From Acidimicrobiia bacterium (GTDB lineage Bacteria > Actinomycetota > Acidimicrobiia > Spongiisociales > Spongiisociaceae): a stretch of 64,000 nt of DNA. Position 1 is the first letter of the stretch. Every line of letters begins with the position of its first letter. Made by a program: the position numbers and the translations under genes. The DNA is taken from contig JBFGLM010000013.1 of assembly GCA_041576165.1 (NCBI GenBank), positions 1 to 64,000 on the forward strand, written 5' to 3'. Below the pieces are notes generated by a model that ran no database searches, had not been told where the DNA came from, and saw only the letters and a list, made by a program, of their open reading frames with translations. Of the stretch, positions 2,920-29,844 are shown piece after piece.

Positions 2920-2978
2920 TTTAGATCGGCCATGGCATCTGGTGGGCTGATTCCCAGCAGTTGCTGAGGAGATCACAG

Positions 2979-8805: not shown

Positions 8806-11613
8806 TTACTCGAGCCGCTCCTCGGGAGATTCCTCTGTGGGTCCGTTCTGGGCGGTCGGCACCCGGTACGCGTCCGGTGTGGGCTTGGTCGGGCGGGCGA
8901 ACCATTCCGGCCGGCGGAGGCCGCCCGGCCCGGGACCCGGTTTGGTCAGCCGCAGCCACTCACGGTAGATCTCGATCGATTTGCCGGTGTCCGCCACGAC
9001 ATCCCCATAGCGATCACCCGGCTCGGCATGCGACAGTCGAACACGCTGATGCCACGCGTGCATACCTGACACCGGATCCGGATGGGGCGGGAACGCGAGA
9101 TTCTGGTTGACGCCGGCGTCGGACCACCAGATACGCTCCGAGTCCGGGTCGTCCGAGGAGAAGGGCTCGATCCCCTTCTTCTGCCGGAGCCGCCAGCGGC
9201 CATTGTCCAGCTTCTCGACATCCACGAGCGCAGAAGACCAGCGCTCGTTGCCCTGCTCGTCAAACAGCCGCCACCGCCCCATGTGGTGAGATGCGGCGAC
9301 CACCCCGGGCCGGATGCCCTCCGTGCGCCAGATCCGCATCACGAAATAGCCGGAGTCTGTAGTGATGCGGATCAGGTCGCCGGTGTCGAAGCCCAGTTCG
9401 TCGGCGTCGCTGGGATGTACCCACAGCGGATGCCCGTGGCTGATCTCATATAGATACTTCGCATTGCCCGAGCGAGTGTGGATCAAGGTGGGGAGCCGGA
9501 AGATCGGCAGCAGGATCCGCTCGTTGCCGGCCAGATCGAGGTCGCGCCAGTACACGTGGGTGTGGAGGTACGTCGGGATCGCCTCATCGTGCCATCCCCA
9601 TTCGTGCATGGTGGGCGACCACCATTCCAGGCGCTTCGACGGCGACGCGAAACCCTTCATGGGCGTCCCGTCAACGTCGACCCCCGTCACGGCGCCGTCC
9701 TTGCGGGCGAAGCCGTCCATTCCCACGTTGTCCGCCTCGACGGACTGTTCGTGCACGTTGTAGACGTCGGTGGCGATCTCGACGGCTCCGTATTTGCGCA
9801 TGTATTCCAGCGGAGTGAGCCCCTCGGCCTCAGCTTTGTCCGGGAGACCCGGGACCGAACGCTCGAACATCCAGCCGTAGTATTCGTCGACCGAGATCGG
9901 TCGGCTCGGATCGTTCGGAGATTCGAACCATTGCTTGATGCCGAGCGAGCCGTCGGGGTCGACCCGCCATGAGAGGTCGATCCAGAACTCGGTCTCCTCC
10001 CATACCTCACCCGGGTTGGCCTCATATGTGCGCTGGAACACCTGCCCGTCCCGCTCGCCTGCTACCCGCAGGACCGGCTGGCGGAAGCCGAGCCACTGGG
10101 CGGCATGAGTTTCGTATGAATGGGTGTCGTGCCGCTCGCTTCCGACCCCCATGGGCAACACATAGTCGGCGTATTGCGCCGTCTCGGACCAGGTCGGCGT
10201 GAGCGCGACGTGGAGGCCGACTTTGTCCTCGTCGGTCAGCAGCTCGATCCAGGAGAACCCGTCGGGGTTGGTCCATACCGGGTTGTAGACGCGGGTGAAG
10301 TACACCTCGAGCCGCCCGCGTCCTTCCTGGATCAGATAAGGGAGCAGGAACGACATCTCGTGGTGCGCAAATGGGTATTCGGGCGGCCAGAGCAATTCGT
10401 TCCAGCGGCTGTGCGGCGGCGGCATGTTCCAGTGAGCAGGCTTGAACTTGCCCCAGGCGCTGGGCGAGGTGCCGCCTTTGGTCCCCACCGATCCGGTCAG
10501 TACGTGCAGGAGCCATAGGCAGCGGGCGGCTTGCCAGCCGCCGAGGTTCCCGGAGCCGGTCGACCGCCAGGTGTGAGAGGCGAAGCGAGTGCCGGCGTCC
10601 TGGATGCCGTCCACGACCGCAACGATTCGCTCGACAGGTACACCGCACTCTTCTGCCGCCCACTCGAGCGAGTAATCGTTGTACGTCTCCTTGAGTAGGT
10701 CGATGAAGGCCTCGAAGCGGATAGCGTCTGGGCGGGCATGGGCCATGACCTCTTCCCAGTTGACCCAGCGGCGGATGAAATCACGGTCGATGGCATCGCG
10801 CTGGAGCAGTTCCCGAGCGATTGCCAGGAACAACGCCGGCTCGGTGCCGGGCCAGGTCGATAGCCAAATGTCTGACATGGAGGCGGTGTTGGACAGGCGG
10901 GGATCGATTGTGGCCAGCTTCGCACCGGCCTGTTTGCCCTCGATGATCCGCTGGGCGTGGGGATTGAAGTAATGGCCCGTCTCGAGGTGACTTGACAGCA
11001 ACAGGATGAACTTGGCATTGGCGAAGTCCGCCGAGGGCCGGTCGTGTCCCATCCACAAGGCGTACCCGGTGCGGGCCCCGGCCGAGCAGATGTTGGTGTG
11101 GCTGTTGTGGCCGTCGACGCCCCAGGCGCGCAAGGTCCGCTCCATGAAACCATCCTCACCAGGACGGCCAACGTGGTACATGATCTCGTCGTGGCGATCC
11201 TCCTGGAGAGCAGTGCGCATCCGTTCCGCGATGTCGGCCAGCGCGTCCTCCCAGGAGACTCGTTCCCAGCCGCCGTCACCCCGGGAACCGGTCCGCTTGA
11301 GCGGGTAGAGGATGCGTTCGGGGTCATACATCTGGTTGAGGGTGGCGGGGCCTTTGGCGCAGTTGCGGCCCCGCGATCCGGGATGGGCCGGATTGCCCTC
11401 GAACTTGCGGACCTCGCCGGTGTCCCGATCAACGTAGGCCAGCAGCCCACAGGCCGACTCACAGTTGAAACACGTGGTCGGCACCAGTCGGTAGCGGTGC
11501 GCCACCTTGTCGGGCCAGGCGCGGGCGTCGTACTCCTCCCAATCGTCCCAGCGATCGGGCGGCGGATAATTGGTCAGCCCTTGAGGATGCAGCCTCGGAA
11601 TCTCAGTCGTCAT
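8806..11613 (-). CDS. Molybdopterin (bis-MGD) oxidoreductase catalytic subunit, DMSO-reductase family, no Tat signal
   Basis: TTCFNCESACG...RNCAKG Fe-S motif, HTNICS, IDPRLSNTA, ADYVLP, IHTRS; GGAGG RBS before ATG 11613. Confidence 0.92.
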   Translation of the reverse strand: MTTEIPRLHPQGLTNYPPPDRWDDWEEYDARAWPDKVAHRYRLVPTTCFNCESACGLLAYVDRDTGEVRKFEGNPAHPGSRGRNCAKGPATLNQMYDPERILYPLKRTGSRGDGGWERVSWEDALADIAERMRTALQEDRHDEIMYHVGRPGEDGFMERTLRAWGVDGHNSHTNICSAGARTGYALWMGHDRPSADFANAKFILLLSSHLETGHYFNPHAQRIIEGKQAGAKLATIDPRLSNTASMSDIWLSTWPGTEPALFLAIARELLQRDAIDRDFIRRWVNWEEVMAHARPDAIRFEAFIDLLKETYNDYSLEWAAEECGVPVERIVAVVDGIQDAGTRFASHTWRSTGSGNLGGWQAARCLWLLHVLTGSVGTKGGTSPSAWGKFKPAHWNMPPPHSRWNELLWPPEYPFAHHEMSFLLPYLIQEGRGRLEVYFTRVYNPVWTNPDGFSWIELLTDEDKVGLHVALTPTWSETAQYADYVLPMGVGSERHDTHSYETHAAQWLGFRQPVLRVAGERDGQVFQRTYEANPGEVWEETEFWIDLSWRVDPDGSLGIKQWFESPNDPSRPISVDEYYGWMFERSVPGLPDKAEAEGLTPLEYMRKYGAVEIATDVYNVHEQSVEADNVGMDGFARKDGAVTGVDVDGTPMKGFASPSKRLEWWSPTMHEWGWHDEAIPTYLHTHVYWRDLDLAGNERILLPIFRLPTLIHTRSGNAKYLYEISHGHPLWVHPSDADELGFDTGDLIRITTDSGYFVMRIWRTEGIRPGVVAASHHMGRWRLFDEQGNERWSSALVDVEKLDNGRWRLRQKKGIEPFSSDDPDSERIWWSDAGVNQNLAFPPHPDPVSGMHAWHQRVRLSHAEPGDRYGDVVADTGKSIEIYREWLRLTKPGPGPGGLRRPEWFARPTKPTPDAYRVPTAQNGPTEESPEERLE

Positions 11614-11723
11614 TTCCGGCCTGCCTCCGTTTCTCGACTTCGTCGCAGCGCACGAGGAGGGGTCACGTACGGCGGCCGGGCACCCAGCGCACCACCCGCT
11701 CCCCCAGCCGCGCCGACCCTCAT
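11610..11723 (-). CDS. Possible 37-aa linker ORF coupled at both ends
   Basis: ATGA overlap with the NrfD-fusion stop and ATGA overlap with the Mo-subunit start. Confidence 0.3.
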   Translation of the reverse strand: MRVGAAGGAGGALGARPPYVTPPRALRRSRETEAGRK

Positions 11724-13324
11724 GAGAGCGGCACCGCCTGCCCCGCCCGCACCAAGGCATCGTCGGCGAACCAGATGCCCGCCATCGCAGCAAGACCACC
11801 CAACGAGGCAAGTGCGTCCTGGCCAGTCGCCAGGCTCACCCACCCGGCGGCAATGGGAACCGTCACCCCGAGCAACTGGCCGCCCACCCACCAGCGGAGG
11901 GCAAAGTGGCCCCGGGTGAGGTGATGCATGGCCGCCTCGACATTGCGAGTCGGGTGCCGGCTGAGCAGGTCTCCCAGCGCCAGCAACCCGAGCGCAGCGG
12001 CTCCGCCGATCATGGCCCAGACAAACGCCTCGAATCCGTCTGGGCTGATCACCCGCCGTGTGACCGCCCCCGAACCGGCGTCGTACAAGATGGTGCTGAA
12101 CACTGCCGCTGCACCACCGCCGACTGCGAATGCTCCCGCCAGCATGTGCCACAGAAGCATCGGGCTCTGCCACAGGTCCCGCGCCTCTGCCTGGCCGAAG
12201 AGAAACGCCGTATATCCGGCAGTGGCCAGCGCCAGCGGCACTCCGACCGACAGCATGACCTTCACGAGGCCGACGTTGCCCATCAGCCCGGCGACAAACC
12301 AGATACCCAGCACAGCCGCGTAGGCGCCGAGGATCCACGCACCCCGCACCAGCCACGAGCCGGGGTTCCCCTTGGTCAGGAGGTAGTAGAACCGGTCGGG
12401 TCGCTTGAGGTCGGCCACCAGCAGCGCCCCGGTCGCGAGCAGGAAGATGCCGGCGATGAGCGGAGTGCCCCAGCGGGCCCAGTTGGTCTGCATGTCTGCT
12501 CCCGCCCACCAGGCCAGCGCCAGCGCCAGCACCAGGCCCGCCGAGATACCCTTCGTGAGGAAGTAGCTCGACACCCGCCAACCCCAAGGGGCCGGATGGT
12601 CGGTGTTGTAGGTCACCCGGGGCGGCTCGTGATCGCGGCGCAGCGTCCCCGGCCCGGCCGCCGGCCGGTCCCCGTTGGGGGGAGTGAGATCGACTGCCAG
12701 CCATGACGAGCCGGGCTCCGTGTCGCGCCAGATTCCGCCGCCGTCTCCCAGCGTCGTGGCGGCGAGCGGGTCGAGGTTGGCTGCCTCAGCGCCCTTGTAC
12801 CACAGGTTGGGTGCCGTTCCCTGCTCGGGCGCCCGCTGGAACAGCGTGTCGGTCGCAACCATGTGTGAGATGACGGTGGTCGGGTCGTGCAGGTCCCCGG
12901 CAATGATTGCTTGTTCCGGACATACGACGACACAGGCCGGCTCGATCCCAACCTCCACCCGATGGGCGCAGTAGTTGCACTTTTGCGCAGTGTGCTCGTC
13001 CGGGTCGATGTACAACGCATCGTACGGGCAGGCCTGCATACAGCTCTTGCACCCGATACAGCGATCCGTGTCGAAATCGACAATGCCGTCCTTGCGGGTG
13101 TAGAGCGCCTTGGTGGGGCAGATCGCCACACAGGGGGCGTTGGAACAGTGGTTGCAGCGCATCACCGAAAAGAAGCGCTTCGTGTCGGGCCATTCACCCT
13201 TCTCGACGTACTTGACCCAAGTTCGGTTGACCCCGAGGGCCACGTTGTGTTCCGTCTTGCAGGCGACTGTGCAGGCGTGGCAACCGATGCACTTCGTCTG
13301 ATCGATCACGAATCCGTACTGCAC
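11720..13324 (-). CDS. 4Fe-4S dicluster (DmsB/NrfC-like) fused to an NrfD/PsrC-like membrane anchor
   Basis: CIGCHACTVAC, CNHCSNAPCVAICP, CIGCKSCMQACP, KCNYC...PACVVVCP; hydrophobic C-terminal half with DLKRPDRF and SWLVRG; AGGAG RBS before GTG 13324. Confidence 0.92.
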   Translation of the reverse strand: MQYGFVIDQTKCIGCHACTVACKTEHNVALGVNRTWVKYVEKGEWPDTKRFFSVMRCNHCSNAPCVAICPTKALYTRKDGIVDFDTDRCIGCKSCMQACPYDALYIDPDEHTAQKCNYCAHRVEVGIEPACVVVCPEQAIIAGDLHDPTTVISHMVATDTLFQRAPEQGTAPNLWYKGAEAANLDPLAATTLGDGGGIWRDTEPGSSWLAVDLTPPNGDRPAAGPGTLRRDHEPPRVTYNTDHPAPWGWRVSSYFLTKGISAGLVLALALAWWAGADMQTNWARWGTPLIAGIFLLATGALLVADLKRPDRFYYLLTKGNPGSWLVRGAWILGAYAAVLGIWFVAGLMGNVGLVKVMLSVGVPLALATAGYTAFLFGQAEARDLWQSPMLLWHMLAGAFAVGGGAAAVFSTILYDAGSGAVTRRVISPDGFEAFVWAMIGGAAALGLLALGDLLSRHPTRNVEAAMHHLTRGHFALRWWVGGQLLGVTVPIAAGWVSLATGQDALASLGGLAAMAGIWFADDALVRAGQAVPLS

Positions 13325-13418
13325 ACCGCTCCTCACCCGACCGTGCGACTACGAGCAACCTCGTGGAACGTACTCACGCCCGTCACCGCGCATTCTCGAT
13401 TCTGACACAGCACAATGC

Positions 13419-13435
13419 AAAAGTCCGTACAAATT
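13419..13435. promoter_or_regulatory. AT-flanked GTCCGTAC operator-like site, copy 1
   Basis: AAAAGTCCGTACAAATT in the divergent intergenic region; same core recurs inverted at 14511. Confidence 0.45.
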
Positions 13436-13652
13436 CGTAGACGGCTCCATACAATACTGACAAACACATTTCGGAGCAGCACGTGAGCGATACCGCCAAT
13501 CCCCGCTGGACCCTGGTCAAGCGATCACGATGCGTGGCGACGCCTCCAGTGCGGCTTCGGCAAACATGCCGGTCGGACCGGAACCGCGCCCAACTGACCC
13601 GCACGCTGCCCCACCGGCGCGCGAGCATGGAGCTGGCGACGGAGGTGTACTG

Positions 13653-14450
13653 ATGCGCCGGATCGTGCTGGTGGTGATCCTTGTCCTGGCTGCCTGCGGG
13701 CAAGGCGAGTCGGTGGAGGTCCGACCGTTTGAGGAGATCCAGGCGTCGGATGTCACCTTTGAGAACGATCCGACCTTCCCCGGGAGGGCCATCATGCGCG
13801 TGACCACCACCGAACCGGCCATCTGCGCGATCGTCTGGGGCGAGGCCGAGACGCTCGGTCAGATGAACAACAGCCTCAACATGAACGGCACCGGGATAAT
13901 CCAGCACGATGTGTTGCTGCCCGGTGCCGAAGCCGGGCAAACGTACTTCTACCGGCTGCAAGGATCCACCGCCGACGGCACTCTGTTCCAGTCCGATCTC
14001 ATGACGTTCACGCTGCCCGCGGCCGACCCGGCGGCGCAAGCTGATGCTCCCGGCGGGGCCAATCTTGCCCTCGAGGCGACGATCACCGACGTCAGCAGCG
14101 AATTCTCGGACTCATGGGCCGCCGCCAACGCCATCGATGGCGACCTAGCCACCGAATGGTCGACGGCAGGCGACGGAGATGAGGGATACATCGTCGTGGA
14201 CCTCGGTCGATCGCACACGGTCGCCGTGCTCGAATTCATGACCCGGACGATGGCCGACGGCTCTGCCACCACAACCACCTATACAGTGACCGTTGATGGC
14301 AGCGATCCGCTCGGCCCCTTCGACGCAGGCAATCCCGCCGACCGCAAACTGGTGCCCGTATCGGTCACAGGCCGCGTATTCCGCTTCGACGTCCAGGATT
14401 CGACCGGCGGCAACACGGGCGCCATCGAGATCGGTATCTACGAGCAATGA
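13653..14450 (+). CDS. Lipoprotein with a C-terminal discoidin (F5/8 type C) domain
   Basis: GGAGG RBS; lipobox LAAC; NLALEA...SSEF...NAIDGDLATEWST...VDLG...EIGIY. Confidence 0.85.
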   Translation: MRRIVLVVILVLAACGQGESVEVRPFEEIQASDVTFENDPTFPGRAIMRVTTTEPAICAIVWGEAETLGQMNNSLNMNGTGIIQHDVLLPGAEAGQTYFYRLQGSTADGTLFQSDLMTFTLPAADPAAQADAPGGANLALEATITDVSSEFSDSWAAANAIDGDLATEWSTAGDGDEGYIVVDLGRSHTVAVLEFMTRTMADGSATTTTYTVTVDGSDPLGPFDAGNPADRKLVPVSVTGRVFRFDVQDSTGGNTGAIEIGIYEQ

Positions 14451-14504
14451 GGCCGCTCTACTCTCCCGAAAGGGGCCGCCCCGGCACAAGCCTGTTCAAG
14501 TCGA

Positions 14505-14526
14505 TAGAATAAAAGTACGGACATTT
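14505..14526 (+). promoter_or_regulatory. -10 box (TAGAAT) followed by operator-like site, copy 2
   Basis: TAGAAT-AAAAGTACGGACATTT upstream of the MBL-rhodanese gene. Confidence 0.5.
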
Positions 14527-14560
14527 AGGCAGGAGCAACGACGCAGGCGAGGAGCGCTCG

Positions 14561-15901
14561 ATGAAGATCACCAACATTCGAACACCGGGTTTGGGCGACG
14601 CCACCTACATCCTGTCCCACGAAGGCGTATCGGTGATCGTCGATCCGCAGCGGGATGTGGAGCGCTTCCTGGCAGCCACTGAGGACACGATCGTGCGGAT
14701 GGTCCTCGAGACCCATCTGCACAACGACTACGTGTCCGGAGGCCGGGATGCCGCCCGCCGGACCGGCGCCGAGTTGATCGTGCCGGCCGCGGCTGCCCCG
14801 GCGTATCGGCATACCCCGGCCTTTCATCTGGAGGACATCGCAGCCGGCCCTTTCATCGTGCGCCCGATCCACACGCCCGGGCACACCCCAGAACACACGT
14901 CGTATCTCATCGTCGTGGACGGTGAACCGCTGGCACTCTTCAGCGGCGGATCGTTGCTCGTGGGCTCGGCCGGCCGCCCCGATTTGCTCGGCACAGAGCG
15001 AGCCGACTCACTGGCGCGGCTCCAGTACATCTCGGTCACCCGCCTGGCCGAGCTGCCCGACGAGGTCGAACTACTCCCGACCCACGGCGAGGGTTCGTTC
15101 TGCACCGTGTCCGGCGCCGGCCGCACCACATCCACCATCGGCGAAGAGAAAAAGAGCAACCCTGTGCTGCATTTCGCCGACGCCGAAGCGTTTGTCAAAG
15201 CGCAACTCGCCGAATTGCAACCGTATCCCACCTACTACCGGCACATGGGGCCCGCCAACTTGATGGGTTTTGCACCAATGCCCGCGACAGGCCCCGAGCA
15301 GGTCAGCATCGATGAACTGGATGCGCTGGCGGATGTCACGCTGATCGACATCCGCCCCAAGCAAGAGTATGCCGACGCTCATATTCCCGGCTCGATCGGA
15401 CTGGAGATGGGCGACCAGGTCGGTGTGTGGGCCGGCTGGCTGCTTCCCCACGACGCGCACATCGTGCTGATCGCGAATCACGATCAGGACGTCGAGGAGG
15501 CGGCTGCCCAGTTCGCTCGGATCGGCATGGACGGGCTCATTGGAGTCCACTACGGGATCGGCGATTGGACGGCGGCCGGCCGCCCCACCGCCGGCCATGG
15601 CACAGTGGACGTTGAAGGCTTCGTCGAGGCGTACCGGCGGGGCGAAGTAACCAACCTGCTCGATGTGCGTGCGCCCAGTGAGTTCGAAGCCGGCAGCCTG
15701 GACGGAGCTATCTGGCGGTATCTGCCGGACCTGGCACAGAATATGCCGGACGGCCTCGATGGAGCGCATCCTGTCTGGGTAGCGTGCGCGAGCGGCTACC
15801 GCGCCAACGCCGCCGTTCGGTTCATCGAACAGGCCGGCTACGAAGCAGTGGTGCTGATCGGCGGTGGGATCCCCAACGTTCTCGCCGCACTACAGCGTTG
15901 A
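14561..15901 (+). CDS. MBL-fold hydrolase / persulfide dioxygenase-like domain fused to two rhodanese domains (CstB-like architecture)
   Basis: ETHLHNDYVSG, HTPGHTPEH, PTHGEGSFC, DIRP...HIPGS, DVR...CASGYRA. Confidence 0.88.
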   Translation: MKITNIRTPGLGDATYILSHEGVSVIVDPQRDVERFLAATEDTIVRMVLETHLHNDYVSGGRDAARRTGAELIVPAAAAPAYRHTPAFHLEDIAAGPFIVRPIHTPGHTPEHTSYLIVVDGEPLALFSGGSLLVGSAGRPDLLGTERADSLARLQYISVTRLAELPDEVELLPTHGEGSFCTVSGAGRTTSTIGEEKKSNPVLHFADAEAFVKAQLAELQPYPTYYRHMGPANLMGFAPMPATGPEQVSIDELDALADVTLIDIRPKQEYADAHIPGSIGLEMGDQVGVWAGWLLPHDAHIVLIANHDQDVEEAAAQFARIGMDGLIGVHYGIGDWTAAGRPTAGHGTVDVEGFVEAYRRGEVTNLLDVRAPSEFEAGSLDGAIWRYLPDLAQNMPDGLDGAHPVWVACASGYRANAAVRFIEQAGYEAVVLIGGGIPNVLAALQR

Positions 15902-16049
15902 GCTCAACCCCACCCGGCGCGTCGCCGGTGATCTCGGTTTGTGCCCTCGCCCGCCCGAGGGTGGGCATTTCCTGTCCGGAACGCCGAACGCACGCCGGGG
16001 GTGGCAAGCCCCGAAGCGTGACATATTGCACTCCGCCCGGCTGCCGACC

Positions 16050-17555
16050 ATGACGCGCTCTGCGAAGTACCGGTTTGGGTTCCATGACGTGGTCGCCGGA
16101 GTCAGCGTGGCCCTGGTGGTCATCCCCCAAAGCTTGGCGTATGCCGAGATCGCCGGTATGCCGCCCTACACCGGCCTGTACGCGGCGGCCCTACCGGCGA
16201 TTGCCGCGGCTCCGCTGGCGTCGTCCCGCTACCTACAGACCGGTCCTGTGGCCATGACGGCCCTGCTGTCGTTCGGAGCACTGTCGGCGATCGCCGAACC
16301 CGCCACCGACGAGTACGTCGGACTCGCCATGCTGCTCGCGATCGTCGTGGGCGTGGCCCGGTTGGCGCTGGGAGCCGTGAAGGGCGGAATGATCACGAAC
16401 TACATGTCGCCCTCCGTGGTGCTCGGCTTCACCACTGCGGCCACGCTGCTGATCGTCGCCTCGCAGAGTGCCCTAGTTGTGGGCCTACCCGATCCCGATT
16501 CCGATCTGATGCGGCGGGCGGTGGACGTGGTCGCCAACCCGGGCACGTGGAACTGGGAGGCGCTGGCGCTGAGTGTGGTCGTGGCGATTGTCATCATCGG
16601 CGGGCGCCGCGTCCACCCACTGTTCCCGGGGGTCTTGCTGGCAGTGGTTGTCGGCATCGCCGTCTCGGCCGCCACCAGCTACTCGGGAGAGCTGGTCGGT
16701 CAGATCCCGGCTGGATTCCCCCCGTTCTCCCTGTCCTTGCCGTGGAGCCGGATCCCGGAGCTGGTGGTCCCCGGCATCATCATCGCCGCGGTTGGCTTCG
16801 CCGAGCCGACCGCCATCGCCCGCACAATGGCGGTGCACGACCGGGAGCGATGGGATGCATCCCGGGAGCTGATCAGCCAGGGCTTAGCCAACGTCGCCAG
16901 CGGCATATCCGGCGGATTCCCGGTCGGGGGGTCCTTTTCCCGCAGCTCGATCAACCGGGTAGCTGGAGCGAGGTCGCCGTGGGCGGGCGCCGTGACCGGG
17001 CTGGCGGTGCTGGCATTCATGCCCTTCGCCGGTGTGCTGGCCGAGCTCCCGCTGGCCGTATTGGGTGGCATTGTCATCGTGGCGGTGTTCGGGCTGATCC
17101 GGATCCCCGATATGGTGCGTCTGGCCCGCGTGTCGTGGGGTCAGGCCTTCGTGGCCTGGTCGACTGCGGCAGCCACCATCCTGCTGTCACCCAGGGTGGA
17201 CCTGGCAGTCCTCTTTGGAGTTCTGGTCGCTGCCGGCGTCCACATCTATCGGGAGTCGTCACGCACCCGGGTGGTCACCAACTTCAAGGAGCCCGAACTC
17301 GAGATCCGGCTCGGCGGCGTCCTGTTTTACGCCTCGGTCGGTGCGCTGGAAGAGGCGCTGACTGAGCAGGTAGCGGCGAACCCCACCGTTGAACGCTTGG
17401 TACTGGACCTGGGCCGGCTCGGTCGCATCGATCACTCGGGGGTCATGATGCTCCGGACCTTCGTGAACGAGGCGCGCCTGGCCGGCCTCGAGGTGCGGGT
17501 GGCGAACATCCCCAGCCATGCTCAGGGGATATTTCAGCGGGTCGGCGGAATCTGA
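16050..17555 (+). CDS. SulP family anion transporter with STAS domain
   Basis: AGVSVALVVIPQSLAYAEIAG, TGPVA, GGSFSRS, C-terminal LDL...IDHSG. Confidence 0.93.
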   Translation: MTRSAKYRFGFHDVVAGVSVALVVIPQSLAYAEIAGMPPYTGLYAAALPAIAAAPLASSRYLQTGPVAMTALLSFGALSAIAEPATDEYVGLAMLLAIVVGVARLALGAVKGGMITNYMSPSVVLGFTTAATLLIVASQSALVVGLPDPDSDLMRRAVDVVANPGTWNWEALALSVVVAIVIIGGRRVHPLFPGVLLAVVVGIAVSAATSYSGELVGQIPAGFPPFSLSLPWSRIPELVVPGIIIAAVGFAEPTAIARTMAVHDRERWDASRELISQGLANVASGISGGFPVGGSFSRSSINRVAGARSPWAGAVTGLAVLAFMPFAGVLAELPLAVLGGIVIVAVFGLIRIPDMVRLARVSWGQAFVAWSTAAATILLSPRVDLAVLFGVLVAAGVHIYRESSRTRVVTNFKEPELEIRLGGVLFYASVGALEEALTEQVAANPTVERLVLDLGRLGRIDHSGVMMLRTFVNEARLAGLEVRVANIPSHAQGIFQRVGGI

Positions 17556-17583
17556 GTGGCCGGCGCCTCCCGGGCACGAGTTT

Positions 17584-17619
17584 GAGCTGTGCCCCGGCGG
17601 AGGCACCGGGGCACAGCTC
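17584..17619. terminator. Perfect 14-bp hairpin, probable bidirectional terminator
   Basis: GAGCTGTGCCCCGG-cggaggca-CCGGGGCACAGCTC downstream of sulP. Confidence 0.75.
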
Positions 17620-18064
17620 GATGACGTCCGGCTAGGACCCCGACGCGCCTGAGCGCATCACCCAGGAATAGCGATACACAAGGTGATGCGTCATTGAGAT
17701 CCGTCCTCGTTGGTGTGACGGACGGATGAGAGGACGGCCCGGCTCGCCGAGATCCGTGATTGCGCGGACGCCGCGACCAGGGGACCGAACGTGCCAACAG
17801 GCCAGGTAGTACGCCCCATCAGTGACGGATTCCGTGAGTTCGAGAACTCAGGGAAGCAGGGCGACAACACGCCTGCGACGGCAGGGCCAAAGGCCACACA
17901 CCAGTGCAGCACCGATCCGCACGACACGCGCCGTGCAGATGGTTCGGTAGTGGTTTTCGACTCTTCGACCACGGGATGCCCCCTGACCTACTTGGAAGAT
18001 CGACGGGTGTCAGCGGGGCCTTGAGGAAATTCTCACCAAATCCAGAAAGAGTTTGCGGCCGCGT

Positions 18065-19135
18065 TCAGCGCTTGAGCTCGGCCCGCAGCGGCCCGTGATC
18101 GAGACGCGGCAGGACGTACCGCGCCACCAGATCGGCCTCGTTCAGATGCGGGTAACCGGAGAGGATGAAGCCGTCGACTCCGGCCTCCCGGTATGCCCCC
18201 AGCTTGGCGACGACCTGGTCCGGGTCGCCGACGATGGCGGCGCCGGCCCCGCTGCGGGCCCGCCCGATGCCGGTCCACAGGTGATCCTCGGCGAAACCAT
18301 CGTCGTCGCTGTCGTCCCGTAAGCTGGCTTGTCGCTGCACGCCGACCGAGGTTGCATCCAGCGAACGCTGCCGGATCTCGCGGCCGACCTCGTCCTCCAG
18401 CTTCGAGACCAGTCGGGCGGCGGCGCCACGGGCCTCCGCTTCGGTCCCACGGACGATCACGTGCGTACGGAGCCCGTACTGGAGGGTGCGGCCGTGCCGT
18501 GCGGCGCGTTCGGTCATCTCCTTGATGGTTGCTCCAACGGCCGAGACGGTGTCCGGCCATGTCAGGAAGACGTCGGCGGCTGCCGCGGCCGTCTCTTTGG
18601 CGGCTTCTGAGAAGCCACCGAAATAGAACGGAGGGCAGACTCCCGATACCGGTCTCACCCTGGGCGGCTCCAGCTGTAAGTCGAGAAACTCGCCGTGATA
18701 GTCGACCGATTCGCCGTTGAGCAGCGCCCGCAGGACCTGCATCCACTCGAGCGTTCGCTGGTAGCGGGGCGCAGACTCCAGTGTTTCCCCTGGAATGTCG
18801 CTCGAAATGATGTTGACGGTCAGCCGGCCGTCGAGCATCTGGTCGAGGGTGGCGAGCTGGCGGGCCAATTGCGGTACCCACATCTCGCCCATCCGCACTG
18901 CCGTGAGCAGCTGCATGCGGCGGATCTGGGGCGCCACGGCCGCCGCAAAGGCGATCGTGTCGATCCCCAACGTGTAGCCAGACGGGAGCAGTATGTTGTC
19001 GAACCCGAGTCGGTCGGCCGCCAGCACGATGTTGCGGCAATGCTCGTAGCTCGATCGAAGCATCGGTTCGGGCACCCCCAGGAACTCGTAGTCGTCGTCG
19101 CATAAGGCCCCGAACCAGGAGATTTCGACGCTCAC
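18065..19135 (-). CDS. LLM-class flavin monooxygenase, sulfoquinovose monooxygenase-like (SmoC/SquD)
   Basis: SWFGALCDDDYEFLGVP...LRSSYEHC, NIISSDIPGE, LWTGIGRARSG, FILSGYPHL match my recollection of the SmoC subfamily. Confidence 0.8.
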   Translation of the reverse strand: MSVEISWFGALCDDDYEFLGVPEPMLRSSYEHCRNIVLAADRLGFDNILLPSGYTLGIDTIAFAAAVAPQIRRMQLLTAVRMGEMWVPQLARQLATLDQMLDGRLTVNIISSDIPGETLESAPRYQRTLEWMQVLRALLNGESVDYHGEFLDLQLEPPRVRPVSGVCPPFYFGGFSEAAKETAAAAADVFLTWPDTVSAVGATIKEMTERAARHGRTLQYGLRTHVIVRGTEAEARGAAARLVSKLEDEVGREIRQRSLDATSVGVQRQASLRDDSDDDGFAEDHLWTGIGRARSGAGAAIVGDPDQVVAKLGAYREAGVDGFILSGYPHLNEADLVARYVLPRLDHGPLRAELKR

Positions 19136-20043
19136 GGCAACGGGACTCCTTCTGAGGCTTCGATGATGTCGTAGACATCGTTTCGGTTCAGGCGGACGTC
19201 GAGTGCCGCGACGGCGGCTCGGATGCGGTCCAGATTCTGCGTGCCGATGATCGCCACAGGCTTGGAGGGATGAGCCAGCACGAAGGCCAACGCCACGGCC
19301 GATCGGTCGGTGCCTTCTCGCTCAGCCAGGCGGTCCAGCGTCTCCACCAGTTCGGCGCGGGTGCCCTCGCCGTGGGCCAGGGCACCGCCCCCCAGTGGAC
19401 TCCACGCCAGCGGCGTGACTTTGTCCCGCATCAGCCGGTCAAACTCGCCATTACGCAGCGGCTCGAGGTGGACCGCCGAGTACTGTGGCTGGCTGGTGGC
19501 AATTGGGAAGGGCAGATAGGACGTCAGTGCGTCGTACTGGGCGAGCGTGAAGTTGGACACCCCCACTTCCCGGATCTTGCCTTGTTCGCGCAGCGCCGCC
19601 AGCGTCGTCGCCAGCTCTTCGGGATGGGTGAACAGATCGGGTCGGTGGATCTGATATAGGTCGATCATGTCTGTGCCCAGCCGCCGGAGCGATTCATCGA
19701 CTGCAGACCGCAGGTAATCGCTGCCGGAGTCATAAGGAACCGGAGGGGTGATACCACCCTTGGTGGCCAAGATGATCCGATCGCGCAGATTAGGGGCGTC
19801 GGCCAACACGGCGCCGAGGAGCTCCTCGGCGCGCCCGAACCCGGTTCCTCCCCAATCGAGACCGTACACGTCTGCGGTGTCGATCAGGTTCATTCGTGCC
19901 ACGAGGGCGGTCTCTATGCGATCCCGGGCCTCGGCGGGCGACATCTGGACGAATCGCCAGCAGCCGAACGCCAGTGGCCCGGTAGTCATGCCTGACGAGC
20001 CAATAGGACGCGGACCCGAGTTCGTGAGGTTTGGCGCAGTCAC
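19132..20043 (-). CDS. Aldo/keto reductase, 6-dehydroglucose reductase-like (SmoB/SquF)
   Basis: DTADVYG, ATKGG, IHRPD, GVSNF, AWSPLGGG; GTGA-coupled to the monooxygenase. Confidence 0.8.
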   Translation of the reverse strand: MTAPNLTNSGPRPIGSSGMTTGPLAFGCWRFVQMSPAEARDRIETALVARMNLIDTADVYGLDWGGTGFGRAEELLGAVLADAPNLRDRIILATKGGITPPVPYDSGSDYLRSAVDESLRRLGTDMIDLYQIHRPDLFTHPEELATTLAALREQGKIREVGVSNFTLAQYDALTSYLPFPIATSQPQYSAVHLEPLRNGEFDRLMRDKVTPLAWSPLGGGALAHGEGTRAELVETLDRLAEREGTDRSAVALAFVLAHPSKPVAIIGTQNLDRIRAAVAALDVRLNRNDVYDIIEASEGVPLP

Positions 20044-20090
20044 CGACGTATCCTATCGGCCGGAGAATGCCGACACGTCAGGCGTAGGTC

Positions 20091-21155
20091 ATGGACGAGA
20101 TCAGGATCGGGATCGTCGGCTCGGGCATGATGGGGCTCGAGCATATCGCCAACATCAATGCCATCCCCGGCGCCCGCGTCGCTGCGCTGGCAGACCCTCA
20201 CAACCCGTCCCTCGACGCGGCAGAAGTGCTGTCGATCACGCCGGTCGCGCGTTTCAGCGATCACCGCGATCTGGCCAAGGCCCAGACGTGCGATGCGGTG
20301 ATTGTCGCGACTCCGAACATGACGCACACCCAGGTGTTGATAGACCTGCTGGCGACCGACTTGCACGTCCTCGTCGAGAAACCGCTCTGCACCACGGTGT
20401 CCGACTGCCGGCGGGTCATCTCCGCAGCCGACGGCCGTGCCCCGATCACCTGGGTCGGCCTGGAGTACCGCTATATGCCCCCCGTCGCCCGCCTGATCGA
20501 CGAGGTTGCGGCCGGAACCGTCGGGTCCGTGCGGATGGTCGCAATCCGAGAACATCGCTTTCCGTTTCTTCCGAAGGTGGGCGATTGGAACCGCTTCAAT
20601 GAGAACACCGGCGGCACGTTCGTAGAGAAGTGCTGTCATTTCTTCGACCTCATGAATCTGGTGGCCGGCTCGGCGCCACTCCGGGTGATGGCGTCCGGCG
20701 GCCAGGACGTCAACCATCTGGAGGAACGTTACGACGGGCGGCGGCCCGACATCCTCGACAACGCATACGTGATCGTCGAATACGACAACGGCGTTCGGGC
20801 GATGCTCGATCTATGCATGTTCGCCGAGGGCGGCCGCCATCAGGAAGAGGTTGTCGTAGTGGGCGACAAAGGCAAAGCTGAGGCCTACCTACCTTCGTCA
20901 GAGCTCTCGATCGGCCTCCGTAGCTCATCGTGGTTTTCACCGACCACCGAGGTGGTCCATAATTGCGACGCTCGAGTGCCGGGCCACCACCACGGTTCTT
21001 CCTACATCGAGGATCTGCGGTTTGTGGAGGCGATTCGGTCCGGGACCCCGCCGGAGGTCACCCTCGACGACGGTCTGATGTCGGTCGCCGTGGGGGTGGC
21101 GGCCCACCGCTCGATTGACGAACAGCGCGCGGTCTACCTCTCCGAGGTGATGTGA
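20091..21155 (+). CDS. Gfo/Idh/MocA-fold protein, NAD+-dependent sulfoquinovosidase-like (GH188/SqgA)
   Basis: GSGMMG, EKPL, EHRFPFLPKVGDWNRF, GGTFVEKCCHFFDLM, HHG; divergent from the SmoB/C-like genes. Confidence 0.75.
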   Translation: MDEIRIGIVGSGMMGLEHIANINAIPGARVAALADPHNPSLDAAEVLSITPVARFSDHRDLAKAQTCDAVIVATPNMTHTQVLIDLLATDLHVLVEKPLCTTVSDCRRVISAADGRAPITWVGLEYRYMPPVARLIDEVAAGTVGSVRMVAIREHRFPFLPKVGDWNRFNENTGGTFVEKCCHFFDLMNLVAGSAPLRVMASGGQDVNHLEERYDGRRPDILDNAYVIVEYDNGVRAMLDLCMFAEGGRHQEEVVVVGDKGKAEAYLPSSELSIGLRSSSWFSPTTEVVHNCDARVPGHHHGSSYIEDLRFVEAIRSGTPPEVTLDDGLMSVAVGVAAHRSIDEQRAVYLSEVM

Positions 21156-23932
21156 CCGAGCCCGACCGCAACGGGCGTCTGCGGGCGCTGCTCCGATACT
21201 TCGCGACGCTGGCCCGACCCGCCCGGGAGCAGCGTGCCGGTCTACTGGACGGTTCCAAGACCATGTCTGAGATGGTCTACATGGGTGATGACCTCGAGTG
21301 GATCGACCAGCCCGTCTCCTACATTGCCGATTTCGGTGCCGACCGGCTCCCTGCCCTCTCGAAGCTCTCCAGCATCCAGAGCCTGCACGAAGGAGAGCAG
21401 GTGCTCTACGCCGGCTGGCCCTGGCTCTCGGGCACGGTGCCGGTCGATGGGGAGGAAACCCGCGTCTGCCTGCCTGTCCTGGAAGCTGCGGTTGATGTGT
21501 CGCCCAACCGCCTCGGGCTGGGTTATCGGGTGCGGCTGGTCGGCCCGCCCGAGCCGACCCCGCTATTGGCGGACACCTCGGAGGAGTTGTGGGACATATT
21601 CGAAGCCGTTGCCGCTCCGGTCTCGAAGCGGCGTGGGGACGGGTCGGCTGAGGAACGCCTTGCGGCGGCTTTGTGGGACCGGCTGCGGGACGAGCTCGAG
21701 GTGCTTGCACATATCCCCGAGGTCGCGGTGGCCGACAACCTGCCGACCCGGCTGCGGTCGCATCCCGGCTTACACCTGGTGCTCGGAGCAGCGCTCTACG
21801 TGAAAAGTGGCGTCCGGCCGGGCTCGCGCAGCCATGAGCTGCTTGCCGCCCGGGACGTGAGGCTGGCGGGGACCGCGCTCGACGTTGTGTACAACGGCGC
21901 ACCGGGCACCGGTCCCGTTCGTGAACGCCGAGTCGTGGAAACGACCTCGCTCACCCGGCCTCAACATGTGGCGACTGCCTCCGCCCTCAATCGGGACCTC
22001 ACCGTGGTCGCCGGGCCACCGGGGACCGGAAAGACCCACGCAGCAGTGGCCGCAGCGCTGGCCGCAGTCGGTCACGGCGATTCTGTGTTGATCGCCACGA
22101 CCTCCAGGTTCGCTGCCGACGTCATCGCCCAACGCTTCCGAACGGTTCCCGGGTTGCGTTTCTTCCGGTTTGGTTCCGAGGAGCGGCCCGCGCTGCTCGA
22201 GGCGAAGGAGTCAGACACCCCGCAACCGGGCGGCGTCCAAGGAGGTGAGTTGTACGGGGCGGTGGCCCAGGACCTTCGCTCGGAAGCCGATCTCGAGCGC
22301 GCCCTCCGCACCCGCCGGCGGGCGATGGCGTTCGGGGCGGTTCCCCGCTCCGACGTCGACCTCTCCAAAGTGGGTAAGTGGGTGGCTCGAGCAGATGGAC
22401 ACGGGTGGTGGGCCACCCGTGTCCGGCGCAAAGCCCAGAAGGCGCTGGCGATGCCGCCCGACACCTCGCTCGAACAGCTCCGACAGGCTCTGGAATTCCA
22501 GCACGCCGAGCGGTTGATCGAAACGGTCATCAGGACCGGGGGCGTCTCGCTCGATGCGGTATGGGCCGACCTCGAACAAGCGGTGGACGAACGGCACCAC
22601 CGCGGCCGCCGGTGGGTTGCGTCGACCTCGGCCCCGGCCGCCCAGTCGCAGGTGCTGGCCACGTTGGACACGGCGTTGCGGGCAGGGCCTACGGCCCGGC
22701 GTCGCAAGCTAGCCGCCATGAAGTCGGCCCAAATCACGGCCAGTCTCCCGCTGTGGATCGGCACGCTGACCGAGATCAGCGAGTACTTGCCGCTGGCGCC
22801 CGCCATGTTCGACCTGCTGATCATGGATGAGGCTTCTCATACGAACCAGCTCGATGCGATCCCAGCGCTGGTGCGAGCCCAGCGGGCCATGATCCTGGGC
22901 GACCCGAGACAGCTTCGCCACGTGTCGTTTGTTGGCGATGAGCACATGACGGCTGCAGCCGGGACCGCTGCCCTGGGGGACGACCTCGCGCTGAAAGCCG
23001 ACATCCGCCGGAACAGCGCGTTCGATGTGGCGTCGATGGCGGGTCCGGCCGTGTGGCTCAACGAGCACCACCGCTCTGCGCCGCACATCATCAATTTCTC
23101 GGCGCAGCGGTTCTACGACGGCCTCATCATCATGACCCGGCACCCGCACAACGAGACGCTGGACCTCATCCACACCGAGCATGTGCCGGATGGTGCATTT
23201 GACCGCGGGCTGAACACCGCGGAGGCCAATCGGGTCGAAGACCTGATCCGCCGGCTCGATTCGGGCGGTCCCGGGTCGATCGGGGTTGTGACACCCTTCC
23301 GCAACCAAGCAGACCTCCTCGAAGAGCGAATGCTGAACCGCTTCGATGACGCGGACATCCGCCGCCTGCGGCTACGGGTGGGCACGGTGCACGGTTTCCA
23401 AGGCAACCAGCGCGACACGATGATCATCTCGACTGTCGTGAGTCCGGACAACCTGAGTGCGCTGCGGTTCGTCGAGGATCCGAACCTGTTCAATGTGATG
23501 GTCACCCGGGCTCGTCTGAGCGTGTGGCTGGTTACTTCGGTGACCGCCGACGACCTTCCCCGCAACGGCCTGCTCGCCGAATACCTCCGCCATGCCGACG
23601 AGAAGCCCGTGGAACTGTTCACCACATCACCTGACGAAGGCTGGACGACTGAGGTTTTCACTGCGCTCCGGGGTTACGACATGCGGGTGGTTCCGGAATA
23701 CCCGGTCGGCCCGTACACGATTGATCTGGTGATCGGGGAGGGACCTGCGGCGATCGGGGTCGAGACGCGGGTGCACGACGGGGGTATCGGCGCCCACATC
23801 GAGCGCCATCTCGCACTGCGCCGGGCCGGGTGGACGCTCATCGACGCGTTTGAAAGCCGGTGGATGACCCGGCCCGAGGCGGCCGCACAGCACATTGCCG
23901 AGATGGCGGTTCGGGCGACCAGGAGCCTCTAG
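21152..23932 (+). CDS. Superfamily 1 (DNA2/NAM7-like) helicase with a C-terminal restriction-endonuclease-like domain
   Basis: GPPGTGKT, MDEAS, GDPRQL, HHRS, TVHGFQG, NVMVTRAR; EYPVGPYTIDLVI...GVE. Confidence 0.85.
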   Translation: MTEPDRNGRLRALLRYFATLARPAREQRAGLLDGSKTMSEMVYMGDDLEWIDQPVSYIADFGADRLPALSKLSSIQSLHEGEQVLYAGWPWLSGTVPVDGEETRVCLPVLEAAVDVSPNRLGLGYRVRLVGPPEPTPLLADTSEELWDIFEAVAAPVSKRRGDGSAEERLAAALWDRLRDELEVLAHIPEVAVADNLPTRLRSHPGLHLVLGAALYVKSGVRPGSRSHELLAARDVRLAGTALDVVYNGAPGTGPVRERRVVETTSLTRPQHVATASALNRDLTVVAGPPGTGKTHAAVAAALAAVGHGDSVLIATTSRFAADVIAQRFRTVPGLRFFRFGSEERPALLEAKESDTPQPGGVQGGELYGAVAQDLRSEADLERALRTRRRAMAFGAVPRSDVDLSKVGKWVARADGHGWWATRVRRKAQKALAMPPDTSLEQLRQALEFQHAERLIETVIRTGGVSLDAVWADLEQAVDERHHRGRRWVASTSAPAAQSQVLATLDTALRAGPTARRRKLAAMKSAQITASLPLWIGTLTEISEYLPLAPAMFDLLIMDEASHTNQLDAIPALVRAQRAMILGDPRQLRHVSFVGDEHMTAAAGTAALGDDLALKADIRRNSAFDVASMAGPAVWLNEHHRSAPHIINFSAQRFYDGLIIMTRHPHNETLDLIHTEHVPDGAFDRGLNTAEANRVEDLIRRLDSGGPGSIGVVTPFRNQADLLEERMLNRFDDADIRRLRLRVGTVHGFQGNQRDTMIISTVVSPDNLSALRFVEDPNLFNVMVTRARLSVWLVTSVTADDLPRNGLLAEYLRHADEKPVELFTTSPDEGWTTEVFTALRGYDMRVVPEYPVGPYTIDLVIGEGPAAIGVETRVHDGGIGAHIERHLALRRAGWTLIDAFESRWMTRPEAAAQHIAEMAVRATRSL

Positions 23933-24095
23933 CCTCACTTGGCCGACGGCTCCACACACGAGCGCGTGCTGGAGATCAATGCGGGCAAAGTGGCCATGCC
24001 CGGTTCACCGCTGATGTCGCCACACGGTGCGTGGGTTCGACGCCGCTGAGGGTCACGGCAGCCGCGCCCCGCCGAGAATGATCCAGCTGCCGCTC

Positions 24096-25133: not shown

Positions 25134-25136
25134 GCG

Positions 25137-28054: not shown

Positions 28055-28136
28055 CGGTTGCTGCCTCCCTTGGATGCTCGAACACTCACCCTAGAGCCAC
28101 AGCTCTCCTCATGCCTCGGAACTGCCGCGAAACACG

Positions 28137-28164
28137 GCGGGCGCCGGTAGTCACCGGCGCCCGC
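28137..28164. terminator. Intercistronic hairpin after the binding-protein gene
   Basis: GCGGGCGCCGGT-agtc-ACCGGCGCCCGC, perfect 12-bp stem. Confidence 0.7.
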
Positions 28165-28193
28165 TTGTTCGTCGGTCAGTTCATCAACCGACC

Positions 28194-29615: not shown

Positions 29616-29844
29616 CCGTCCTCCTGTCTTATCCGCCAAGCCAAACGAGCGGACTATGAGCAGCTCCACTCGCCGATGCAGGTTGGCGGACCGGAGCATA
29701 GCGCCGGAGGGGTGGCGGGACCACAGGGGACGATTGGACTGAGCCGTTGCCGGGCCGATCTTCTGGCCAGATCGGATCGCCCGACCAGATCGCTATCGAA
29801 GGATGCATCTAACGACCGCGGCCGGCCCCAAGGGCTACCGGCTG

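Follow-up and report, generated by a model that had tools for sequence, protein, structure and literature searches.

A sulfoquinovose desulfonation cassette and a predicted cytoplasm-facing molybdenum–sulfur module, probably independent, lie tail to tail in an Acidimicrobiia genome

A 64,000-nucleotide stretch of an Acidimicrobiia bacterium genome (GenBank assembly GCA_041576165.1, contig JBFGLM010000013.1, positions 1 to 64,000; hereafter the window) carries, side by side, genes for degradation of the sulfosugar sulfoquinovose (SQ) and genes for a membrane-bound molybdenum (Mo) enzyme, a persulfide dioxygenase (PDO) and an anion transporter. Our analysis indicates that these are probably two independent modules arranged tail to tail, one a cassette of the sulfoquinovose monooxygenase (sulfo-SMO) type and the other part of a widespread cytoplasmic toolkit for sulfur oxidation and persulfide detoxification, with a Mo complex resembling SoeABC. 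A first-pass annotation had read the eight-gene block at 8806 to 21155 as one integrated island converting sulfosugar to glucose, passing sulfite electrons to respiration and exporting sulfate. Pfam and NCBIfam domain searches, by which the genes in 8806 to 21155 were called, recovered all eight gene types, with frames and starts corrected, and the GC content is even along the block (0.61–0.68). The integration itself did not withstand comparison with other genomes, and the best reading is that the adjacency is particular to this genome, with no conserved integrated system. Unlinked halves in relatives had been named in the first-pass annotation as part of what would refute the island, and that is what the comparison shows. 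The features on which this reading turns are the following.

8806 to 11613, minus strand: catalytic subunit binding Mo-bis(pyranopterin guanine dinucleotide) (Mo-bisPGD), 935 aa (Pfam Molybdop_Fe4S4, Molybdopterin, Molydop_binding)
11720 to 13336, minus strand: four-cluster ferredoxin (PsrB/TtrB-like) fused to an NrfD/PsrC-type quinone-binding anchor with eight transmembrane (TM) helices (Pfam Fer4_11, NrfD)
14561 to 15901, plus strand: CstB-like persulfide dioxygenase-rhodanese (Pfam Lactamase_B, Rhodanese)
~16050 to 17555, plus strand: SulP/STAS anion transporter (Pfam Sulfate_transp, STAS; NCBIfam sulP, 249 bits)
17584 to 17619, unstranded: terminator-like hairpin with a perfect 14-nt stem, just after the SulP gene
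18065 to 19135, minus strand: SmoC-type FMNH2-dependent sulfoquinovose monooxygenase of the luciferase-like monooxygenase (LLM) type (match to PDB 7OH2, conserved residues)
19132 to 20043, minus strand: SmoB-type aldo-keto reductase (AKR), predicted to convert 6-oxo-glucose to glucose (match to PDB 7BBY/7BBZ); its stop overlaps the SmoC start
20091 to 21155, plus strand: Gfo/Idh/MocA protein, homologue of the GH188 NAD+-dependent sulfoquinovosidase SqgA (match to PDB 8QC3)
25137 to 29699, minus strand: ATP-binding cassette (ABC) importer, comprising a solute-binding protein (28194–29699) and two permeases (26102–28054 and 25137–26105) (Pfam SBP_bac_1, BPD_transp_1)

The synteny of both halves speaks for their independence. 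A scan of species-representative genomes for SmoC gave 554 relatives, and the locus statistics are drawn from the best 80 of the 554, which come mostly from Acidimicrobiia metagenome-assembled genomes (MAGs; Ilumatobacteraceae, MedAcidi-G1, G2B, Poriferisodalis and Microthrix), the remainder including some Streptosporangiaceae, Solirubrobacteraceae and Alphaproteobacteria. When window proteins were searched against these loci by tblastn (E ≤ 1e-10, >50% query coverage, ~10 kb neighborhood), homologues of the Mo subunit, the FeS-NrfD fusion, the metallo-β-lactamase (MBL)-rhodanese, SulP or the discoidin lipoprotein encoded between the Mo operon and the MBL-rhodanese gene lay within ~10 kb of SmoC in 0 of 80. 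For the reciprocal panel, 35 other genomes of the class supplied 35 Mo loci (19 + 16), some of them cut short by contig ends; the panel's query proteins were partly drawn from loci L008, L009 and L019, whose matches therefore hold by construction. In both panels, the tblastn thresholds would overlook divergent genes, many loci are incomplete and related genomes are non-independent samples.

The two halves also differ in distribution. SmoC is found in 2 of 41 genomes (the window's own and 40 relatives), compared with 26 of 41 for the Mo subunit, which also turned up in 21 when 151 genomes of the class were sampled. The only other SmoC-positive relative, G004, carries a permease, 89% identical to that of the window, directly before SqgA, SmoB and SmoC, which are followed by genes for a trehalose-phosphate synthase, a phosphatase and an amylase. 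Among 30 SmoC-bearing genomes searched whole, 16 encode a Mo homologue and none has it adjoining SmoC (0/16); in the six closed chromosomes containing both, the two genes are ~96 kb to 2 Mb apart. Within the window itself the modules are convergent and are separated by a 510-bp noncoding spacer (17556–18064). This arrangement, together with the terminator-like hairpin, argues that they are not one transcript.

These data bear directly on the idea that selection recruited the cassette to a position beside the Mo, PDO and SulP genes, so that the sulfite it releases is oxidized and exported under shared control. We regard that as unlikely, though it has points in its favor. SmoC frees sulfite in the cytoplasm, according to PMC8795539 (Sharma et al. 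2022), and this is the compartment that the Mo complex is predicted to face. In addition, among 75 cassettes with at least 1.5 kb of downstream sequence no flavin reductase, TauE or sulfite exporter/dehydrogenase recurs, so a sulfite sink would be needed. Lastly, 1 of the 35 Mo loci in other genomes does contain an SQ gene. It belongs to G068, a genome of another family (G068:C5, ~482000–517000), where an SqgA homologue of 56% identity sits in a cluster that by its Pfam domains resembles a sulfo-EMP pathway (EMP, Embden–Meyerhof–Parnas), with an ABC importer, a 2-hydroxyacid dehydrogenase, a PfkB kinase, a LacD-family aldolase and an unassigned 452-aa protein. The cluster ends 3.5 kb upstream of the FeS-NrfD/Mo operon, with genes for DUF4032 and pyridoxal phosphate-dependent (PALP) proteins between. 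Counting the window, 2 of 36 Mo loci thus lie near SQ clusters, which, judged informally, exceeds chance expectation and hints that the proximity may not be pure chance; this weighs against full independence. However, the G068 pathway is a different one, and sulfo-EMP-type pathways do not themselves release sulfite. The absence of left-half genes from all 80 SmoC loci, the unrelated genes that follow SmoC in G004, the distances in closed chromosomes, the convergent arrangement and the lack of any shared regulator in the window likewise stand against an integrated island.

An assembly artefact is a more trivial explanation for the adjacency, and one we consider extremely improbable. The genome is a fragmented MAG of 161 contigs with 7.5% contamination, and no single listed Logan contig from the runs of the source study spans 17625–17633. 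Nevertheless, a contig from a different study (X5) covers 17192–17664, and X3 covers 14858–17625 and 17633–18229 with identical letters. Sequencing depth is similar on both sides of the SulP/SmoC junction, and the GC content is uniform. The Logan contigs are short and of low depth, and none listed spans the whole 17556–18064 junction; within that coverage there is no sign of a chimeric join. The preferred reading remains two separate modules, and the interest of the locus rests on the Mo family rather than on the adjacency.

The Mo subunit lies in an open reading frame (ORF) at 8806–11811 on the minus strand, and its start is most likely the Met codon at 11613, because relatives align from residues 1–13 of that form. 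Its best NCBIfam matches, DmsA/YnfE (181 bits) and PhsA (178 bits), are far under every curated cut-off. The best PDB match is Thermus PsrA (2VPW; 2e-33, 119 bits), which aligns chiefly over residues 40–295 and includes the Cys ligand of the Mo. The protein belongs to an uncharacterized, strongly conserved family, whose members are 73–89% identical across Acidimicrobiia and 75–89% identical across the relatives among the best 120 clusters listed. Plasmid-borne relatives occur in Thermomicrobium, Rhodococcus and haloarchaea, at 52–60% identity. Many of the relatives' matches are flagged as containing one TGA; we assumed that in these cases the alignment runs past the stop codon into the longer C-terminal tail of the query.

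The first-pass annotation had taken the Mo/FeS/NrfD complex to face the cytoplasm, and the absence of export signals bears this out. Neither the window's Mo subunit nor its counterparts in T. roseum, R. jostii and Natrinema have a twin-arginine motif, whereas the scan for twin-arginine translocation (Tat) signals did detect TRRTFLK in an Azoarcus relative (33% identical, with separate subunits), which served as positive control. The 538-aa FeS-NrfD fusion, whose gene shares the strand of the Mo gene and lies upstream of it, contains Fer4_11 at residues 55–148 and NrfD at residues 245–533. It lacks a signal peptide, because its NCBIfam matches to TtrB, NrfC and DsrO begin at residues 3–6. Its Lys/Arg residues (five ahead of TM1, one in loop 1 and five in loop 2) fit a topology with the N terminus inside, and the same signal-less fusion is encoded in T. 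roseum, R. jostii and Natrinema. Collectively, the missing Tat motif, the FeS domain starting at residues 3–6, its fusion to NrfD and the Lys/Arg distribution indicate that the complex should face the cytoplasm. Matches on Alpha- and Betaproteobacteria plasmids were tried as Soe references and rejected, since they belong to unrelated Mo/ferredoxin/FAD clusters or to a Tat-exported complex.

Beyond this genome, sulfur genes recur beside the Mo complex, in Acidimicrobiia as well as in Rhodococcus jostii. In the panel of 35 Mo loci the FeS-NrfD gene adjoins in 31, and the further neighbors are DsrE2-like proteins (11), ArsR (10), rhodanese-MBL (Rhod-MBL) fusions (9), SulP (9) and CstB-type MBL-rhodaneses (8), with at least one sulfur gene in 17 of 35. 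A more distant family (57–58% identity) has a codirectional series of SulP, PDO-rhodanese, a protein like type III sulfide:quinone oxidoreductase (SQR), FeS-NrfD and Mo, in which the SQR-like member is a Pyr_redox_2 protein whose best NCBIfam match is type III SQR (220 bits, under cut-off). On R. jostii plasmid pRHL3 (L119) the order is DsrE, TusA, FeS/NrfD, Mo and Mrp/NBP35, with a divergent set comprising an MBL gene, two DUF202 genes, ArsR, a further MBL gene and thioredoxin. In T. roseum a CsoR-family regulator is encoded immediately upstream of the Mo operon, and the best specific NCBIfam match of the relatives' ArsR proteins is BigR (62 bits, under cut-off). The Mrp/NBP35 iron-sulfur carrier gene directly follows the Mo gene both on pRHL3 and on a Natrinema plasmid (L123), and its product may be a maturation factor dedicated to the complex.

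The window's own genome has further sulfur genes on other contigs. An sHdr-like cluster on contig C23 (52000–66000) contains ArsR, followed by TusA, two DsrE, HdrC-, HdrB- and HdrA-like proteins and an electron-transfer flavoprotein, and a second cluster on contig C26 (10000–26000) contains SQR-like, DUF1641, DsrC, DsrE and DUF302 proteins. Both suggest that this presumed heterotroph oxidizes sulfur extensively in its cytoplasm, and both are predicted to be further sources of cytoplasmic sulfite.

The MBL-rhodanese of the window matches PDB 3TP9 (1e-51, residues 8–430) and 3R2U (3e-40), as well as BpPRF, a Myxococcus PDO and ETHE1. It has an HLHNDY metal motif (HIHADF in the 3TP9 template) and a C-terminal CASGYR (CxxGxR) rhodanese loop. 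The CstB-type matches support its identification as a CstB-type persulfide dioxygenase homologue, in agreement with the earlier proposal that it is a persulfide dioxygenase. The start of the adjacent SulP gene is probably near 16050, and the transporter likely exports an oxidized sulfur anion.

Given this setting, we slightly favor the reading that the Mo complex is a cytoplasm-facing sulfite:quinone oxidoreductase analogous to SoeABC, because the SQR, PDO, DsrE, TusA, sHdr and SulP genes that recur around it and in its genomes lack precisely the step from sulfite to sulfate. Several observations weigh against this assignment. No Soe-named match to the Mo subunit was found among 42 PDB matches, the NCBIfam families and ten representative clusters, the protein atlas gave generic names only, and the best solved or curated matches, PsrA, PhsA and DmsA, are reductases. 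In IMG the family has only a COG name, and a 32%-identical relative carries the KEGG Orthology name phsA/psrA. A published survey places SoeC only in Proteobacteria, Clostridia and Aquificae. By the panel used, 18 of the 35 Mo loci have no sulfur gene, including 14 of the 17 from the window's own family. The window's own genome also has four matches to the sulfite-oxidase family (PF00174), which may be alternative sulfite oxidizers, and, with DsrE and TusA in the operon, sulfur bound to a carrier would be a better-fitting substrate than free sulfite. PMC8984609 holds nothing specific on SoeABC in Acidimicrobiia; a paper on sulfide-oxidizing Acidimicrobiia treats SQR, and a term search of its text gave no mention of molybdopterin or Soe.

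In a rival reading the complex acts on sulfane sulfur or thiosulfate, either as an inward-facing, quinol-dependent reductase of the Psr/Phs type for polysulfide, persulfide or thiosulfate, or by oxidizing persulfide or thiosulfonate bound to DsrE or TusA, which would account for those two genes in the operon. Among solved and curated proteins its nearest relatives are PsrA and PhsA, which share the Cys ligand, and in 11 of 35 loci FeS-NrfD is preceded on its own strand by a DsrE2-like gene, as it is by DsrE-TusA in R. jostii. CstB-type enzymes, moreover, yield thiosulfate. However, resemblance to PsrA is largely limited to the first 300 residues, every NCBIfam score falls far short of its cut-off, and the operon with SQR and PDO lacks only the sulfite-to-sulfate step. 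The lineages concerned are aerobic heterotrophs, and no precedent is known for inward polysulfide reduction. We therefore hold a sulfane-sulfur or thiosulfate substrate to be an improbable alternative, well behind sulfite.

A formate substrate is far less plausible still. Calisto and Pereira report in their review an uncharacterized Mo/FeS/NrfD complex with members in Actinobacteria (59 species), for which they tentatively proposed the name formate:quinone oxidoreductase FqoABC within an uncharacterized NrfD clade. One NCBI record calls a member of the Mo family a formate dehydrogenase; however, NCBIfam models of formate dehydrogenase score 117 and 97 bits, less than DmsA and PhsA. Formate dehydrogenases have a Cys/Sec-His motif at the Mo ligand. 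At the Mo-ligand Cys the window protein has C-S-A-G, like Psr and Arr. This motif, together with a genomic context that is sulfur throughout, makes a role as formate dehydrogenase very unlikely.

The wider proposal, that the Mo subunit and FeS-NrfD constitute a new family of sulfur:quinone oxidoreductases, independent of Soe and facing the cytoplasm, with members in Acidimicrobiia, Rhodococcus, Thermomicrobium and haloarchaea, is put forward tentatively and falls just short of what we would call probable. Such a family would be the missing sink for cytoplasmic sulfite or for sulfane sulfur bound to DsrE and TusA, feeding the electrons into respiration. If so, it would take sulfur from persulfide dioxygenases, from sHdr-like systems and from sulfonate desulfonation by enzymes such as SmoC. 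With no report of SoeABC from Actinobacteria, the ways in which heterotrophic lineages among Gram-positive bacteria and archaea dispose of cytoplasmic sulfite are poorly defined. A conserved inward-facing Mo complex next to persulfide-sensing regulators and sulfur carriers bears on this question, and because one member is carried by a plasmid of Rhodococcus jostii RHA1, which can be cultivated, there is a direct experimental handle.

The other module begins with the SmoC-type gene. A longer overlapping ORF (18033–19178, minus strand) has no family match, and the true LLM frame is 18065–19135 on the same strand. Its product matches RoSmoC 7OH2 (6e-110, 371 bits) and 7OLF (1e-107, 363 bits) better than MsuD 7JV3 (237 bits) or SsuD 1NQK (223 bits) and is thus nearer to SmoC than to MsuD or SsuD; on the NCBIfam SsuD model it scores 268 bits, under the cut-off of 518. 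The structures 7OH2 and 7OLF are those of SmoC/RoSmoC, and 7BBY and 7BBZ those of SmoB, according to PMC8795539, section 9 of which also supplied the list of RoSmoC FMN and sulfonate residues. When published residues were placed on the window proteins through HMMER alignments, the LLM protein was found to retain all seven of these (FMN-phosphate contacts Tyr136 and Ser189; sulfonate-site residues Trp206, Arg236, His238, Tyr341 and His343, in RoSmoC numbering), which are also common to MsuD and SsuD and hence not specific for SQ.

The best solved matches of the AKR are the SmoB structures 7BBY/7BBZ (1.4e-48). It keeps 8 of 10 checked SmoB residues, namely the tetrad Asp71, Tyr76, Lys104 and His151 together with Arg152, Trp232, Thr284 and Arg289, while the glucose contact Lys120 is lost in a nine-residue loop deletion and Phe241 is replaced by Ala. 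These matches and conserved residues support the earlier assignment of the LLM/AKR pair as a SmoC/SmoB-type desulfonation pair. The Gfo/Idh/MocA protein had been recognized as such in the first-pass annotation. That gene type stands, and our comparison adds its predicted function as the sulfoquinovosidase of the cassette. It matches 8QC3 (2.4e-98) and 8QC2 (1.6e-94), which PMC10755693 (Kaur et al. 2023) describes as the NAD+-dependent sulfoquinovosidases ArSqgA and FlSqgA of family GH188. It is identical to 8QC3 at eight of eight positions (Lys107, Tyr136, Glu189, His193, His321 and the sulfonate triad Arg166, Leu170, through its backbone, and Lys172). For this mapping the offset of 13 between chain and published numbering was deduced from the EKP and EYRY motifs.

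Related loci define how far the cassette reaches. Adjoining SmoC, the 80 loci contain SmoB in 64, SqgA in 44, the 25137–26105 permease in 39, the solute-binding protein in 32 and the 26102–28054 permease in 31. The usual order in relatives is solute-binding protein, permease, permease, SqgA (on the opposite strand), SmoB and SmoC. Since the ABC genes are syntenic with SmoC in 31–39 of 80 loci, the cassette extends beyond 21155, to 29699, and the window shows the usual order once two genes are removed:

21152 to 23932, plus strand: SF1 helicase with a C-terminal REase_MTES_1575 nuclease domain (Pfam AAA_11, AAA_12, MTES_1575)
24096 to 25133, minus strand: GHMP-family kinase (Pfam GHMP_kinases_N), 3 nt downstream of the ABC permease

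The start of the helicase-nuclease gene and the SqgA stop share 4 nt, and by NCBIfam its product weakly resembles the anti-phage proteins ProA and Hhe. Because none of the 80 related cassettes carries a homologue, it looks like a defense-type gene inserted into the SQ cassette. The GHMP kinase has no specific NCBIfam family match and no homologue in the 80 cassettes; as a guess, it might phosphorylate the sugar product.

Other genes that recur around the 75 cassettes having ≥1.5 kb of downstream sequence encode a MalK-type ATPase (24), LacI (14) and GH13 (13); tblastn found no remnant of any of these three in the window. The window likewise contains neither an ABC ATPase gene nor a cluster-encoded flavin reductase (SmoA); elsewhere in the genome, three PF01613 flavin reductase genes lie on contigs C10, C14 and C18.

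An ISME J 2026 paper reports sulfo-SMO clusters as frequent in Actinomycetota, which weakens the earlier suggestion that the system is undescribed in this lineage. A literature search on sulfoquinovose and Acidimicrobiia gave an unrelated soil study as the sole co-mention among the papers listed. The cassette is a further member of a known pathway, in a lineage previously noted at survey level only. SQ is one of the largest organosulfur pools, and the cassette displays a complete GH188 plus sulfo-SMO route in Acidimicrobiia.

In the mechanism we propose, the ABC system of the cassette (18065–29699) would import sulfoquinovosyl glycerol or SQ, and the GH188 enzyme would hydrolyze SQ glycosides through transient oxidation at C3, freeing SQ. 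The SmoC-type enzyme would then cleave the C–S bond with FMNH2 and O2, giving sulfite and 6-oxo-glucose, with FMNH2 supplied by a flavin reductase encoded elsewhere, and the SmoB-type enzyme would reduce 6-oxo-glucose to glucose. In the second module (8806–17555), the CstB-like persulfide dioxygenase-rhodanese would make sulfite or thiosulfate. The Mo-bisPGD subunit, docked on FeS-NrfD, would oxidize cytoplasmic sulfite to sulfate in the manner proposed for SoeABC, the electrons passing by way of the four FeS clusters to a quinone site within NrfD, with SulP moving the anion out. Because SmoC frees its sulfite in the cytoplasm, the second module could also serve as a sink for it, and we infer that cross-talk between the modules could occur.

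The left half of the block contains one additional gene.

13653 to 14450, plus strand: discoidin (F5/8 type C) lipoprotein with a lipobox-type N terminus (Pfam F5_F8_type_C)

Its ORF opens at 13530, the lipoprotein-type signal MRRIVLVVILVLAAC starts from ~13653, and no homologue occurs in the 35 Mo loci or the 80 SmoC loci; it is probably a bystander. The ORF at 13383–14039 (minus strand) and three small ORFs in the SulP–SmoC spacer have no Pfam match and were treated as noncoding. That spacer contains a near-perfect palindrome with 12-nt arms at 17830–17855 (TTCCGTGAGTTC/GAACTCAGGGAA). There was no Rfam match across 13200–21300, and no regulator palindromes were present in 13300–13700 or 20030–20100. 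On the far side of the Mo gene, a 1204-aa pyruvate:ferredoxin oxidoreductase-type gene and then a gene for a dihydroorotate-dehydrogenase-like protein (PRK07565, 432 bits) occupy 2961–7576 (plus strand), and an M19 dipeptidase gene lies between these and the Mo gene.

Comparison of the Mo complex with SoeABC of Allochromatium vinosum and Aquifex aeolicus reveals a likeness in architecture and predicted orientation. Both have a Mo-bisPGD subunit of ~930–960 aa that carries a 4Fe-4S motif near its N terminus and lacks a Tat signal, a four-cluster FeS protein without signal peptide, an 8-TM NrfD-type anchor and a predicted cytoplasmic face, and both are hosted by genomes that make cytoplasmic sulfite. 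In contrast to the three separate subunits of SoeABC, the FeS and NrfD parts are fused in the window; the gene order is FeS/NrfD and then Mo, and no SoeA name is given in IMG. With PsrABC of Thermus thermophilus (2VPW–2VPZ) the complex shares the Cys Mo ligand and the Mo/FeS/NrfD architecture. However, Psr is Tat-exported and periplasmic, with three separate subunits, and the Mo protein of the window is ~170 residues longer.

The sulfur genes around the complex recall the cst operon of Staphylococcus aureus and the BigR-Blh operon, which serve sulfide detoxification with persulfide sensing. The window has the CstB-like MBL-rhodanese (3R2U, 3TP9), and its relatives carry BigR-like ArsR proteins, Rhod-MBL fusions, DsrE/TusA carriers, SQR and an anion transporter. 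The window's own genome has its regulator, SQR and carrier genes on other contigs instead, SulP takes the place of TauE, and a Mo complex of respiratory type, which those operons lack, is attached.

The cassette is most readily compared with the sulfo-SMO cluster of Agrobacterium tumefaciens (smoA–I; PMC8795539), with which it shares the SmoC-type and SmoB-type enzymes, an ABC importer with a solute-binding protein, and active-site residues. It differs in having GH188 SqgA in place of the GH31 enzyme SmoI, in encoding no SmoA flavin reductase, ABC ATPase or regulator in the cluster, in a SmoB without the Lys120 loop, and in the inserted helicase-nuclease and GHMP kinase genes. Compared with the GH188 SqgA proteins of PMC10755693, the window homologue is hosted by Acidimicrobiia and is known here by sequence alone; it has the same eight aligned residues and sits in a sulfo-SMO cluster without a GH31 enzyme, an arrangement already described in that work.

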